UHGV virus genome: UHGV-1599541
Direction: 5' to 3' (one strand)
Length of the DNA: 24,846 nucleotides
Source of the DNA: a virus
The translations under genes and the position numbers were made by a program. Within the stretch, counting starts at the first letter, position 1. Each line of letters opens with the position of its first letter. A model generated the notes under the pieces. That model saw only the letters and a list, made by a program, of their open reading frames with translations. It searched no databases and was not told the DNA's origin. Of this stretch, positions 16,580-23,017 are shown in pieces.

Positions 16580-16694
16580 GGCACTTGTGTGAATCCCTTT
16601 TCGGAAGAGATTTTATTGAAAGTCACTTGTTGACTTTCTCGTGACAAGCAATTTTTTTATTTTTTTCGGGAGTAGGGGAGGAAGGTAAAATCCA

Positions 16695-20416: not shown

Positions 20417-20694
20417 ATTACTTTTTCCGAATTATGTGGATAGTTTTTATAAGCGGTGATAACTACCCAGGCTTTCCCGTCAGCACACATCCTATATCCC
20501 GCCAGCACACATTAGCAACCCGTCAGCACACATTTTTATCCCTCCAGCACACATCGTTTTCCCTCCAGCACACATCGCGATACACTTCTAAGCCAGACGT
20601 GGCGCGGTCTGCAACGATCAGGGATCTATATGGATCTAATTGGGATCTGTATGGACCTAATTATTGGATCTATCCAGTGGATAATGTGGATAAG
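20417..20694. other. oriR: Plasmid origin oriR: DnaA boxes, incC iterons and GATC-rich heptamer repeats
   Basis: DnaA-box-like TGTGGATAG 20435-20443; tandem AGTGGATAA / TGTGGATAA at 20676-20693; five GATC within 20616-20670 in TGGATCT-type heptamers; five iterons between. Confidence 0.7.
20474..20578. repeat. incC: incC: five directly repeated 19-bp RepA iterons upstream of repA
   Basis: CCAGCACACAT-type cores at about 20474, 20496, 20518, 20539 and 20560, spaced 21-23 bp (about two helical turns). Confidence 0.85.
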
Positions 20695-20695
20695 T

Positions 20696-20720
20696 GAAAA
20701 ACCGGCCAACAAAGCCGGTT
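20696..20720 (-). terminator. Rho-independent terminator at the end of the minus-strand operon, facing oriR
   Basis: Stem ACCGGC / GCCGGT with loop CAACAAA; on the minus strand the hairpin is followed by UUUU. Confidence 0.55.
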
Positions 20721-20734
20721 GGAAGGAAGCCGTA

Positions 20735-21127
20735 TTATTCTACGCTTTCGATGAGAAGGCCATGTTCATAACATTTAAGCTCATCGCCTTCGTACAGGAA
20801 TTGGTATCCAATACCACCATTTTCATGGACATTAGGGAATAACTCATAACTCACTGAAGAGCAAATCACACCAATGCAGCGATCAACGCCCTCTCGTTCT
20901 TCAGTGCTGAAAAAATCCTCTTCGGTAAGAACATGAGTACATTGCTCATCAGCATAGGTCGGAAATACATGCTCGATGCAATCCGGGTGTTTTAAACCAA
21001 GCTGATCGGCAAGCTCGAAAGCATGACGGTATTGTTCAGATCCTGGCTTGCCAACAGTGATGTGCTCAATTTTGTAGATTGAAGTCGCTTTGTTGATAGT
21101 TTGCTTTACTGTTACTTTATCAGACAT
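20735..21127 (-). CDS. Hypothetical protein (130 aa), last gene of the spanin-containing operon
   Basis: ORF track; SD AAGGGA 6 nt upstream; the o-spanin-like stop TAA lies just upstream. No recognisable domain. Confidence 0.55.
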   Translation of the reverse strand: MSDKVTVKQTINKATSIYKIEHITVGKPGSEQYRHAFELADQLGLKHPDCIEHVFPTYADEQCTHVLTEEDFFSTEEREGVDRCIGVICSSVSYELFPNVHENGGIGYQFLYEGDELKCYEHGLLIESVE

Positions 21128-21138
21128 AAAAATCCCTT

Positions 21139-21471
21139 TTAGTTACCGCTGATAGCGCGGTTGTAATCATTAACGTTGCGATTCTTCCTGTTAATCCCCA
21201 TCAGCATCGTTTCTGTATCAAGGATATAGGCTGGCAGATCATCAAAATATTCACTGCTAAACTCTGGCATCCTGCACATAAATGCACTTTTGGGGGCAGG
21301 GTGGTTAACCTTTGTCGGCGTCGGCGTTAAATTCGCTGATCGACTCCCGGAGCAACCGCTGAGTGTCAGCAGGAATGCGCTGGCGAACATTACCCGCCGC
21401 AACCAGTTGTTTCTGAACTTCAGCTTTTCGTTCCATTTGCCTGTCAGCATATTTGGCTTGTTCTGATTCAT
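21139..21471 (-). CDS. o-spanin-like outer-membrane lipoprotein (Rz1-type), overlapping the upstream gene in another frame
   Basis: Lipobox LTLSGC; mature part about 70 aa, Pro-rich (LTPTPTKVNHPAPK) with one Cys; the start is either ATG 21471 (SD AGGAAGTG) or internal Met at 21390. Overlaps 21305-21727 by 86-167 bp. Confidence 0.55.
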   Translation of the reverse strand: MNQNKPNMLTGKWNEKLKFRNNWLRRVMFASAFLLTLSGCSGSRSANLTPTPTKVNHPAPKSAFMCRMPEFSSEYFDDLPAYILDTETMLMGINRKNRNVNDYNRAISGN

Positions 21472-21727
21472 TTTTCACTTCCTGGCTGTGAAAATGTTGA
21501 TCCGCTTTATTCATCGTCTCAATGGTCTGGTTAAGATCACTGATTGACTTATCGCGCTCCTTAACAGCCTGATCAAGGCTGCCAATTTTTTCCAAGGCTT
21601 GCTTTAACTGATAACGTTCCCATGCAAACCCAGCACCAACAAGTGCGCAAATCAGGACAAGAACACCAGTAACAGCAAGTTTCTCCTTCAAAGACAAAGC
21701 TGTTTTTAACGTTGAAAAAAACGACAT
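21305..21727 (-). CDS. i-spanin-like protein (Rz-type): N-terminal TM helix plus periplasmic coiled coil (140 aa)
   Basis: SD AGGAGGAA 5 nt upstream; TM LAVTGVLVLICALVGAGFAW; charged helical C-terminal region; classic overlapped arrangement with the lipoprotein gene. Confidence 0.6.
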   Translation of the reverse strand: MSFFSTLKTALSLKEKLAVTGVLVLICALVGAGFAWERYQLKQALEKIGSLDQAVKERDKSISDLNQTIETMNKADQHFHSQEVKNESEQAKYADRQMERKAEVQKQLVAAGNVRQRIPADTQRLLRESISEFNADADKG

Positions 21728-21766
21728 TTCTTCCTCCTGAAGAAAAATTATCTGTGAAGTCCTTTG

Positions 21767-22555
21767 TTAAAGTGTCGCCTTGTTTAATTCATCAAGAACA
21801 GAATCAGGAACCAAAGCTGCGACTGCGCTGGCGGTGCTGGCCTTATTTGCTGATGCTTCCGCCAGCGCGGTTCCGATAGCATGGTTATAAGCAGTTATGG
21901 CTACGTTGGCGCTTTCATTCGCTCGTTCATACTGCTGTTGTAACGCAGTTGTGGACGCTGTTGTCTGGTTGAAAACAACCCCAAACTGTTCAGTTGCTAC
22001 TTTCAGAGATTCAATTTGCTCTTCTGTTAGTGCTGGTGGGGGAGTGACTGCGCCGCCACCTGAATCAGAGCCTGACGAGCTTCCTGAGCCTGTGTTAAGG
22101 GTCTGGTTAATGTCCCCCATAGCAGCGACTAAACTCGACGTATTAAGCGCATTTACAGCGTCCTCAAGCGATTTCGTTGTAGTCGCGTCACCAATGGCAA
22201 TAGAGATCGGCAGTTCTGATACTTCTCGCTCATTAGCACGGCAGTAAACATCCCAACCAATATCGAGTTGAAGGAGCATTGACAGATCAGCATAACCAGC
22301 CAACAGGTCCGCGTGCTGAGTTGCCAGCCCTCCAATATTCGTTAAACCGGTTGCGGTTGTTCTGATCGTTGAAACATAGCTGGTAATAGTGTCGGGATAG
22401 ACAATTGTATCCAGAATTAATCCGGTCAATTCTTCTGCAAGCAGTTTTGCTGTGTTAGCACTGTTTCGTGCCGATGTTATGGCACCAGGTGTTTTCATCC
22501 CACCGGCGGCGGCCAATTTTTTATATGCGGATAACTGGTAGTCTTTTTCCAGCAT
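21767..22555 (-). CDS. Hypothetical Ala/Thr/Ser-rich protein with Gly/Ser linker (262 aa)
   Basis: ORF track ORF 21767-22612; the start is placed at ATG 22555 because of SD TAGGAG 6 nt upstream and no overlap with the preceding gene. Contains GSGSSSGSDSGGG linker. Confidence 0.5.
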   Translation of the reverse strand: MLEKDYQLSAYKKLAAAGGMKTPGAITSARNSANTAKLLAEELTGLILDTIVYPDTITSYVSTIRTTATGLTNIGGLATQHADLLAGYADLSMLLQLDIGWDVYCRANEREVSELPISIAIGDATTTKSLEDAVNALNTSSLVAAMGDINQTLNTGSGSSSGSDSGGGAVTPPPALTEEQIESLKVATEQFGVVFNQTTASTTALQQQYERANESANVAITAYNHAIGTALAEASANKASTASAVAALVPDSVLDELNKATL

Positions 22556-22563
22556 GATATCTC

Positions 22564-22848
22564 CTAACTTACCTGAACCAGGCCGTCTCCTGACGCTACG
22601 GTAGAGCCGCATGAAACAGGGTCACCAACGCATACGACCCCTTTACCATTGACGGTAAACCATGCCCTGGTTGATATAGCTTGCCCACCGTGCGTACTGT
22701 TTCCATCGGTATGCTGTGCATATTGCTTACCATCAACTAACACTTCGACTCCGTTGACTTTAAGTAGTGGTTCACTCTCTACAGGAGGCCTGGATGGGAA
22801 TCCTCCGTGCCCCGAACAAATGCTGTCTTTTGTTGCAATACTTGCCAC
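22564..22848 (-). CDS. Small Gly/Cys/His-rich protein (94 aa), possibly PAAR-like; GTG start
   Basis: ORF track; repeated motifs resembling PAAR-type spike-tip proteins (CSGHGG, VNGVEVLVDG, FTVNGKGVVCVGDPVSCG). Weak, unverified similarity. Confidence 0.45.
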   Translation of the reverse strand: MASIATKDSICSGHGGFPSRPPVESEPLLKVNGVEVLVDGKQYAQHTDGNSTHGGQAISTRAWFTVNGKGVVCVGDPVSCGSTVASGDGLVQVS

Positions 22849-22929
22849 GTTATCACCAATGATTTGCTCTGATTTTCGTTATTTTAACTTAGGTTGTTTG
22901 TGGTCTACATGGCGTTTACTTATTAAAAA

Positions 22930-22946
22930 ATTGCTCTAATAAATAT
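22930..22946 (+). promoter_or_regulatory. C1 operator-like 17-mer in a divergent promoter region
   Basis: ATTGCTCTAATAAATAT, 16/17 to the C1 operator consensus; lies between the minus-strand operon start (22848) and the plus-strand small-ORF start (23018). Confidence 0.6.
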
Positions 22947-23017
22947 TGTTTTTTGTGTCGTGTTTTCGATACCATTCAGCCATCGCCCTTCAATGGGCAT
23001 TTGTTTGGAGTCGTCAA

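Follow-up and report, generated by a model that had tools for sequence, protein, structure and literature searches.

Two overlapping open reading frames (ORFs) close to the plasmid origin of a viral DNA segment raise the question of whether they encode a two-component spanin, as an earlier note on this DNA proposed, and to which known spanin genes they are related. The segment (UHGV-1599541; 24,846 nucleotides, hereafter the window) is that of a P1-like phage-plasmid, with ~96% nucleotide identity to phage P1, and the two ORFs are its ppfA and mlp genes. The locus is 95-96% identical in nucleotide sequence to P1 and P7, both of whose records annotate ppfA (gp064) and mlp (gp063) in the same slot between upfB and upfA near oriR, with equal lengths (140 and 110 aa), overlap and frame; this establishes the identity of the genes, whose originally reported coordinates proved exact (Table 1). 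The PpfA and Mlp proteins share 96% and 98% of their residues with their P1 counterparts, PpfA differing from that of P1 by A19V, H39Y, I45L, M63S and E76D, and Mlp by S7N and V32A; outside the pair, the window is a variant of P1 with other cargo differences. The ppfA/mlp locus is contained in 771 plasmid records, and both genes are within the 21 most conserved genes of 77 P1-like phage-plasmids. Frameshifted PpfA-Mlp fusion ORFs are also found in some public assemblies.

Table 1. Features of the ppfA/mlp operon and its surroundings, in window coordinates.
Feature	Position	Strand	Remarks
Intrinsic-terminator-like hairpin and T-run	20700..20720	-	End of operon before oriR; 8-bp stem, -12.9 kcal/mol
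upfA	20735..21127	-	Last operon gene, 130 aa; variable slot between mlp and oriR
mlp	21139..21471	-	Predicted o-spanin, outer-membrane lipoprotein precursor, 110 aa; mature 71 aa; +1 frame relative to ppfA
Mlp C66 codon	21274..21276	-	Second and periplasmic Cys; candidate for homotypic intermolecular disulfide
Dual-coding overlap, 167 nt	21305..21471	-	C-terminal 55 residues of PpfA, with Mlp signal region, lipobox and first mature residues
Mlp lipobox L-S-G-C	21352..21363	-	Residues 37-40; lipidation predicted at C40
Candidate mlp ribosome-binding site, AGGAAG	21478..21483	-	Within ppfA, for the first ATG; from upstream sequence; 'AGGA' in Kongari table
ppfA	21305..21727	-	Predicted i-spanin, 140 aa, type II inner-membrane protein, helical periplasmic domain
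PpfA transmembrane helix	21620..21679	-	Residues 17-36, LAVTGVLVLICALVGAGFAW; Kyte-Doolittle; Kongari table
ppfA Shine-Dalgarno, AGGAGG	21733..21738	-	5 nt before ATG; read from sequence, marked for P1 in Kongari table
upfB	21767..22612	-	Baseplate 'tripod' protein of P1; P1 cryo-EM assignment, PMC12810830
upfC	22564..22848	-	First operon gene; product a PAAR-like tip of the tail spike, resembling T4 gp5.4; PMC9024508, PMC12810830
Candidate operon -10-like hexamer, TAAAAT (inferred)	22881..22886	-	32 nt upstream of upfC GTG
C1 repressor operator (Odmt/Op68)	22930..22946	+	Divergent upfC-uhr intergenic region; P1 annotation mapped; core TTTATTAGA invariant

The pair, its overlapped layout, its assignment as a spanin and the scattering of the P1 lysis genes are already known from the literature and RefSeq. 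In the supplementary tables of Kongari 2018 the P1 pair is entered as overlapped, with gp064 the i-spanin and gp063 the o-spanin, and in RefSeq mlp bears the label 'Rz-like spanin'. The names first given to the P1 genes were neutral: 'membrane lipoprotein precursor' and 'possible periplasmic function'. Because the pair is already catalogued as the predicted spanin of P1, the reading set out here is sound yet not new, and it carries little weight as a discovery.

The topology signals of the two proteins are those of an i-spanin and an o-spanin. PpfA has a single strongly hydrophobic segment, the N-terminal membrane helix first noted (19-residue Kyte-Doolittle mean 2.48); the tail preceding it carries Lys, and the hydrophobic segment is retained in the family alignment, as in type II topology. 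The helical periplasmic domain proposed at the outset was recovered in an AlphaFold2 monomer model (mean pLDDT only 69), in which helices spanning residues 13-110 and 120-138 are separated by a break at 111-119, giving a helix-break-helix arrangement. The only Cys of PpfA is C27, inside the membrane helix, and its periplasmic domain has none, in agreement with the Kongari 2018 entry for the P1 i-spanin ('one [Cys] in TMD', 0 periplasmic Cys). A Pfam scan of PpfA returned only sub-threshold coiled-coil noise, and one of Mlp returned no match.

Mlp carries the lipobox that had been reported within LTLSGC. Its C40 is invariant in 8 of 8 aligned sequences, and lipobox variants among the relatives are LSAC, LNGC, LNAC and LGGC. 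The mature protein begins CSGS, and since the residue at +2 after the lipidated Cys is Ser (Phe in one variant) and never the Lol-avoidance residue Asp in these eight sequences, Mlp is predicted to be sorted to the outer membrane. Two details of the original description need amending: Mlp has not a single Cys but two, C40 and C66, and it is no more than moderately Pro-rich, with 6 Pro among 71 mature residues (8.5%), clustered in TPTPTKVNHPAP. C66 is invariant in the family and is matched by a Cys in the alignment to P2 LysC. It is the candidate disulfide-forming residue of the pair, and a periplasmic Cys suited to a homotypic intermolecular disulfide occurs in 507 of 528 spanin pairs (Kongari 2018). 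If Met1 is the translation start, the Mlp signal peptide is unusually long, at 39 residues. Judged by the criteria of Summer 2007 and Kongari 2018 for two-component spanins, the pair combines i-spanin topology, a predicted helical domain, a lipobox, a suitable +2 residue, overlapping genes and at least one periplasmic Cys.

Both partners are related to the spanin of phage P2. The informative route to the P2 family was scanning PHROG profiles, not direct pairwise comparison: PpfA matches PHROG 89, the P2 LysB family, over residues 21-139 (E 7e-24; P2 LysB itself, E 6e-61), while BLASTP of PpfA against P2 LysB returned nothing and a profile-versus-sequence hhalign of the two was not significant. 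Mlp matches PHROG 30284 'Rz-like spanin' (E 2e-77) and PHROG 456, the P2 LysC family (E 4e-5); P2 LysC matches PHROG 456 at 2e-31 and also the Mlp family, PHROG 30284, and hhalign aligns Mlp with P2 LysC at a probability of 91.8% (E 7e-7, 35% identity, 62 columns including both Cys). The best NCBIfam matches are likewise LysB for PpfA and LysC for Mlp, both sub-threshold and far below the curated cut-offs (18 bits against 92.75 for the LysB equivalog TIGR03495; 14.3 bits against 27 for NF038368 P2_Rz1). These matches support remote homology to the P2 pair, with PpfA a remote homologue of LysB and not its equivalog. P2 lysB and lysC share the overlapped +1 layout, with an overlap of 146 nt in P2 and 167 nt here, and in both P2 and the window the pair sits among tail genes. 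The differences are that P2 lysBC directly follows holin and endolysin genes, whereas ppfA/mlp has no such neighbours, that P2 LysB has periplasmic Cys residues and PpfA has none, and that Mlp bears a distinct conserved C-terminal motif, INRKNRNVNxYNRAI.

The architecture had been described as that of lambda Rz/Rz1. The layout here is overlapped (Kongari 'ovl'), whereas the lambda genes are embedded, Rz1 lying wholly within Rz and mlp running 166 nt beyond ppfA; the closest architecture is that of P2 lysB/lysC. Like lambda, the window combines a predicted type II inner-membrane protein, helical in its periplasmic domain, with an outer-membrane lipoprotein from the +1 frame, and the proposed mechanism is that of lambda; in lambda Rz1 as in Mlp the mature lipoprotein has a Cys available for a homodimer disulfide. 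However, lambda Rz carries a pair of periplasmic Cys where PpfA lacks any, mature Rz1 (40 aa) is far more Pro-rich than Mlp, and the lambda spanin genes belong to a contiguous S-R-Rz/Rz1 cassette, unlike ppfA/mlp. Neither PpfA nor Mlp matched Pfam Rz or Rz1, hhalign probabilities against lambda Rz and Rz1 were only 1.9% and 4.0%, and the lambda proteins belong to other PHROG families (13 and 3198). Membership in the lambda Rz/Rz1 family was accordingly rejected, for want of significant sequence similarity and on the overlapped rather than embedded layout. A further likeness is to T4 PseT.3/PseT.2, in which the i-spanin also lacks periplasmic Cys and the covalent links are in the o-spanin, as predicted for PpfA and Mlp; the T4 genes are, however, separated and not overlapping, and PseT.2 needs two Cys where Mlp has one periplasmic Cys.

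The absence of a holin or endolysin gene from the window, pointed out from the start, is borne out by synteny with the RCS47 and P1 annotation (sit, pmgB, tub, pmgC, c4/icd/ant, kilA, repL, the tail and head genes 21-23, parBA, repA, upfA, mlp, ppfA, upfB, upfC, uhr, rdgC and dmt) and by PHROG scans, which gave no lysis-category match in the window's non-P1 segments. A dispersed lysis cassette had been suggested on these grounds, correctly, and is a known peculiarity of P1, in which lyz-lydD-lydE, lydA/lydB (of the dar operon) and lydC occupy unlinked sites. The operon that contains the P1 spanin genes is likewise not linked to the remaining lysis genes (Bednarek 2022). The pair's want of holin or endolysin neighbours touches only the label 'cassette member', not the spanin assignment.

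Whether P1 needs this pair for lysis is a separate matter. In a CRISPRi study the efficiency of plating (EOP) on knockdown was 0.24 and 0.19 for mlp and 1.3 and 1.2 for ppfA, and the genes were scored non-essential for plaques; when lambda Rz was knocked down in that study, the EOP fell to 5e-4 in one of the assays. A pair of spanin form might be dispensable or redundant for P1 lysis, being kept for a conditional benefit (for example in particular hosts, where shear is absent or where divalent cations are abundant) or alongside another P1 factor that disrupts the outer membrane. Besides the missing plaque defect, the report that spanins are non-essential in shaken laboratory cultures (Bednarek 2022), the frameshifted fusion variants and the redundant holins already present in P1 would agree with this. 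We nevertheless regard it as unlikely: purifying selection on both frames is strong, the lipobox and C66 are invariant across diverged relatives, and the pair ranks with the most conserved genes of P1-like phage-plasmids, while a plaque assay is a weak read-out for spanins and the CRISPRi values come with no knockdown-efficiency figure for this operon.

The genes are ordered upfC-upfB-ppfA-mlp-upfA in a five-gene operon that ends at a terminator near oriR. The placement of the pair beside oriR, whose five iterons with 21-bp spacing occupy 20473-20576, is right as to position, but the pair does not abut the origin, as upfA and the terminator intervene; in relatives the upfA slot holds a Gp49-like gene instead or is empty. 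The description of the co-transcribed genes as being of unknown function is outdated: UpfC is the tail spike tip (Pfam PAAR_motif, 7e-6; NCBIfam T6SS PAAR domain, 5e-9), and in P1 cryo-EM structures UpfB is a trimeric 'tripod' on the UpfC tip (PMC12810830). The true start of upfB is probably the ATG at 22555, to judge from a PHROG 1559 match that begins at residue 20 and from gene calls of 258-262 aa in relatives.

Transcription of this operon was approached through the Lpa box of the annotated P1 late promoter LP23, AAGTGACTT-N4-TAAAAT, for which the window was searched. None was found upstream of upfC, upfB or ppfA, the sole perfect match in the window being LP23 itself (16610-16628), so late expression of the operon is no more than putative. 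A generic sigma-70 scan likewise gave no convincing operon promoter (count 1, below the shuffled expectation of 4.8) and did not recover P1ppfA and P2ppfA, the promoters predicted in the P1 record, and a P1vir RNA-seq paper makes no mention of the ppfA/mlp operon genes. The only conserved elements upstream of the operon are the -10-like TAAAAT, in which T-A-x-A-A-T is invariant across 7 aligned diverged upstream regions, and the C1 operator of the divergent dmt promoter.

These circumstances (a transcript shared with the genes for the spike-tip proteins UpfC and UpfB, no Lpa box found, a C1 operator in the upstream intergenic region, a plasmid replicon next door and no linked holin or endolysin gene), together with the neutral original names, could suit a non-lytic envelope role, in which a lipoprotein and its periplasmic partner serve the plasmid-prophage state (in exclusion, serum resistance or envelope modification, for example) or take part in entry together with the tail tip. 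We consider such a role very unlikely, given that PpfA and Mlp have their homologues in the two P2 proteins LysB and LysC, with the same overlapped layout, that neither is mentioned in the P1 virion proteome text searched, and that spanin genes unlinked to other lysis genes have a precedent in T4 (Kongari 2018).

Finally, the spanin reading depends on mlp being a gene. That the pair overlaps in different frames, as claimed, is plain: 167 nt are shared, and mlp is read in the +1 frame with respect to ppfA. Many gene callers omit mlp on P1-like phage-plasmids or reduce it to a 46-aa fragment without the lipobox. In five diverged loci, whose PpfA has no more than 59-64% identity, the +1 ORF still ends at the same stop and retains Met1, the hydrophobic core, the lipobox Cys and C66, and since the stop, Met1 and both Cys are kept in all five, the pair is more than a product of chance. 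Nucleotide identity to the diverged loci is 0.77-0.80 in the overlap versus 0.57-0.60 in the part coding for ppfA only. In the part coding for mlp only, downstream of ppfA, substitutions fall mostly at codon position 3 of the mlp frame; against locus L006 the differences there by codon position are 9/7/27, with 24 synonymous versus 9 non-synonymous codon changes. Substitutions within the overlap track the ppfA frame, and the majority are non-synonymous for Mlp. Taken together, the substitution patterns found here indicate purifying selection on both reading frames. That mlp is an untranslated chance ORF over ppfA is exceedingly improbable, and effectively refuted by the conservation data: the gene calls and the ppfA-directed, mostly Mlp-altering changes in the overlap would fit it, but a 110-codon frame preserved with its stop, Met1, lipobox Cys and C66 at ~60% PpfA identity, its third-position bias downstream of ppfA and the homology of Mlp to P2 LysC would not.

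We conclude that ppfA and mlp most likely, indeed with high probability, encode a two-component spanin of the overlapped type, remotely homologous to P2 LysB/LysC; the spanin reading of the earlier note is thus supported, through the P2 homology, the conserved mlp frame, lipobox and second Cys, and the third-position bias. From the lambda, T4 and P2 paradigms we infer complex formation, the disulfide, membrane fusion and the timing of expression. PpfA would be anchored in the inner membrane via its N-terminal helix, with a helical domain of ~100 residues reaching into the periplasm, and Mlp would be exported, receive its lipid at C40 and travel on to the outer membrane. The two proteins would bind through their C-terminal parts to form a periplasm-spanning complex, and C66 would probably disulfide-link two Mlp chains. 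Intact murein would keep the complexes apart and harmless until the LydA and LydD holins, encoded elsewhere, release the SAR endolysin Lyz and the wall is degraded; with the wall lost, the complexes would collapse and the inner and outer membranes fuse, completing lysis.

As to what this means for P1-like phage-plasmids, it is quite unlikely, on our estimate, that the operon departs from a conventional Lpa-driven late unit in a way that would give pre-loaded spanins or a second, membrane-piercing role at the tail tip. Were early or constitutive expression true, the envelope could be pre-loaded with spanin complexes, perhaps in lysogens as well, which would fit the absent knockdown phenotype; were the alternative true, the pair would have a second role tied to the membrane-piercing apparatus of the tail tip. 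For annotation, the conservation data favour the 110-aa mlp frame over automated calls that omit it or shorten it to 46 aa. For the family, the remote homology of both partners to LysB and LysC puts the P1 'singleton' spanin family beside a studied one.

The window matches the P1-like phages (Punavirus) at ~96% nucleotide identity over its full 24.8 kb, and is colinear with positions 41483-67061 of P1 (NC_005856) and with RCS47. The 2.5 kb surrounding ppfA and mlp match P1, P7, SJ46, RCS47 and others at 95-96%, and the locus was found in 771 PLSDB plasmid records (best identity 97.7%), the hosts being mostly Escherichia, Salmonella, Klebsiella and Shigella. Gene order matches that of the P1 RefSeq record (repA, oriR, upfA, mlp, ppfA, upfB, upfC, then divergent uhr-hrdC-dmt), in which mlp is labelled 'Rz-like spanin' and noted as 'membrane lipoprotein precursor ... 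possibly involved in regulation of lysis', and ppfA as 'possible periplasmic function'; other depositors use 'outer membrane lytic protein Rz' and 'outer membrane lipoprotein Rz1'. Two segments are unlike P1 (5220-6284 and 9962-11103): where P1 has simABC, the window encodes a DUF5384-like protein along with a small one resembling DNA methyltransferases, and rlfA, rlfB and pmgF give way to two proteins of unknown function, an arrangement shared with RCS47-type relatives.

An overlapping i-spanin/o-spanin-like pair had been proposed at 21139-21727, and these limits coincide exactly with those of ppfA and mlp, the latter in the +1 frame with an overlap of 167 nt. PpfA follows a strong ribosome-binding site (AGGAGG) and has, as proposed, a single strongly hydrophobic segment (residues 17-36), within which its sole cysteine sits. 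An AlphaFold2 model built from 12 family members (mean pLDDT 69) consists of a long helix (13-110), a break (111-119, AGNVRQRIP) and a second helix (120-138). In Mlp the lipobox LTLSGC is present, with the cysteine at residue 40 and serine at +2. The observation in the earlier note is accurate except on two counts: Mlp contains two cysteines (C40 and C66) rather than one, and it is only moderately proline rich, with no more than 6 prolines in 71 mature residues.

Features of the ppfA/mlp operon and its surroundings (window coordinates)
Feature	Position	Strand	Remarks
oriR iterons	20473-20576		five, 21 bp spacing
Terminator-like hairpin	20700-20720		8-bp stem, -12.9 kcal/mol, then T-run
upfA	20735-21127		between mlp and oriR
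mlp	21139-21471	minus	110 aa
ppfA	21305-21727	minus	140 aa
A5 run	21471-21475		at mlp start codon; a single-A deletion site
-10-like TAAAAT	22881-22886		32 nt upstream of upfC GTG; conserved in diverged loci
C1 operator Odmt	22930-22946		in upfC-uhr region; core TTTATTAGA conserved

P1 is said, in the abstract of the 2007 search for such genes, to have been among the classic phages without annotated Rz/Rz1 equivalents until then. According to Bednarek et al. 2022, the putative P1 spanin genes were identified by Summer et al. 2007 from predicted features; Bednarek et al. place the partially overlapping ppfA and mlp (with the i/o labels swapped) in yet another unlinked operon, the organization being kept in P7 and the other lysis genes scattered (lyz-lydD-lydE; lydA/lydB within the dar operon; lydC). 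Kongari et al. 2018 list gp064 (PpfA) as an overlapped i-spanin of 140 aa with 104 periplasmic residues, no periplasmic cysteine and 'one in TMD', and gp063 (Mlp) as the overlapped o-spanin; the ribosome-binding sites they give are those read in the window. A genome-wide CRISPRi screen scored both genes as non-essential for plaque formation (EOP 0.24 and 0.19 for mlp, 1.3 and 1.2 for ppfA), and both are within the 21 most conserved genes of 77 P1-like phage-plasmids. The Rz/Rz1-type reading agrees with the accepted assignment (Kongari 2018, Bednarek 2022, RefSeq) and with remote homology to P2 LysB/LysC, and there is nothing new in a spanin interpretation as such.

Neither protein has a significant match in Pfam. 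PpfA matches PHROG 89 ('Rz-like spanin', E 7e-24, residues 21-139), and Mlp its own P1 family, PHROG 30284, and PHROG 456 (E 4e-5). When P2 LysB and LysC and lambda Rz and Rz1 were run through the same library, PHROG 89 proved to be the LysB family (6e-61) and PHROG 456 the LysC family (2e-31), and LysC reciprocally matched PHROG 30284. In profile comparison the Mlp family aligned with LysC (91.8% probability, E 7e-7, 35% identity across 62 columns) over the lipobox cysteine, the PTP...PK stretch and the second cysteine. The best NCBIfam matches were LysB and LysC, respectively, both far under curated cut-offs, and direct comparison of PpfA with LysB or lambda Rz was not significant. P2 lysB/lysC share the +1 overlapped layout (overlap 146 nt). 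Lambda Rz and Rz1 belong to different families (PHROG 13 and PHROG 3198) and are resembled in kind only. Taken together, the family, profile and layout matches indicate that the pair as a whole is probably a distant relative of the overlapped P2 spanin.

The reality of the mlp frame was judged from five loci (from Cronobacter, Salmonella, Klebsiella aerogenes and metagenomic assemblies) whose PpfA is 59-64% identical to that of the window. All five keep the synteny (dmt-rdgC-uhr, then divergent upfC(PAAR)-upfB-ppfA, then repA-parA-parB), and in all five the +1 frame is open across 111-126 codons and stops at the identical nucleotide. Every one retains the first methionine and hydrophobic core ASAFLL, the lipobox cysteine (LSAC, LNGC or LNAC), the second cysteine within FMCRMPE, and the motifs EYFDDLPAY and INRKNRNVNxYNRAI; the signal n-region varies freely because the ppfA frame dominates in the overlap. 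Beyond the ppfA stop, differences from the window fall mainly at third positions of the mlp frame (9/7/27 by codon position in locus L006, with 24 synonymous versus 9 non-synonymous codon changes). Nucleotide identity is 0.77-0.80 in the overlap versus 0.57-0.60 in the ppfA-only part, the pattern expected for dual coding. A chance open reading frame was rejected on the frame conservation and third-position bias; with the raised overlap identity, this comparison argues that Mlp is a translated protein under selection. The last of its motifs, at the C-terminus (in the 21139-21303 half), is nearly invariant in the family and lies outside the region aligned with LysC; it may represent a PpfA-binding element peculiar to P1-type o-spanins.

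Variants of the pair also occur. In public protein sets PpfA and Mlp are sometimes fused in frame into a 195-aa product, with no fewer than six different junctions (codons 85, 97, ~104, ~110, ~126 and ~138); such a fusion should abolish normal lipoprotein processing. At the DNA level, three contigs (L012, L013, L016) have lost single A residues from short runs, the A5 at the mlp ATG becoming A4 and an A3 37 nt beyond becoming A2; these losses are either genuine inactivating mutations or sequencing errors in homopolymers. In P0007, a 109-aa Mlp variant from E. coli, residues 62-80 match the locus's other reading frame (CAGCQSLAVNILMICQ; cf. +2 frame), which indicates a local double frameshift inside the mature o-spanin domain; in P0004 (Escherichia albertii), the N-terminal 77 residues of Mlp are joined to a Gp49-family C-terminus, suggesting a recombination junction within mlp.

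As the earlier note had claimed, no holin or endolysin was found within the 24.8-kb window; Sit, the tape-measure/injection protein encoded at the left end, carries an SLT domain, and no other domain in the window acts on murein. The origin lies where the note placed it (the incA iterons being on the opposite side of repA), but the pair does not touch it, as upfA and the hairpin intervene. This slot is variable, holding upfA in the window and P1, a Gp49-like gene (PF13876) in L004, L005, L007 and L008, and no called gene in L006; the repA-upfA segment is known as a variable region and blaCTX-M-55 insertion site, with the insertion present in JL22. Nor are the co-transcribed upstream genes of unknown function, as had been supposed: UpfC, which has a PAAR motif, was predicted as a T4 gp5.4-like spike tip (PMC9024508), and a 2026 P1 cryo-EM study (PMC12810830) resolved it at the gp5 spike tip and assigned UpfB to three trimeric 'tripods' anchored there. 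The operon order is therefore spike tip, tripod, i-spanin, o-spanin, UpfA, a layout recalling the P2 late operon in which the lysis genes are flanked by tail genes. PHROG 1559 aligns only from residue 20 of the annotated 281-aa upfB (21767-22612), and relatives' calls (258-262 aa) begin 9 nt past the upfC stop; the annotated start is probably too far upstream and the true one likely the ATG at 22555, with which the apparent upfC/upfB overlap vanishes.

A promoter of the operon could fit only into the 169 bp between the divergent upfC and uhr (22849-23017), where just two blocks, the C1 operator core and TAAAAT, are conserved across diverged P1-like elements. With an Lpa late-promoter box model taken from annotated LP23, the only perfect match in the window was LP23 itself (16610-16628), and none, weaker matches included, lay upstream of the operon, though it encodes virion proteins. 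Two sigma-70 promoters are predicted within upfB in the P1 record, and a generic promoter scan of the window did not recover them; the timing of spanin gene expression is therefore inferred by analogy with other phages.

Gene identity, coding status, topology signals and homology come from the sequence analysis; the mechanism that follows is modelled on work on lambda, T4 and P2. PpfA would be anchored in the inner membrane, Mlp would be tethered to the outer one, and the C-terminal portions of the two would associate across the periplasm. Nearly all two-component spanins have a homotypic disulfide in at least one subunit (Kongari 2018), and in Mlp C66 may supply it. Once murein had been degraded by Lyz, the PpfA-Mlp complex would collapse and the two membranes fuse.
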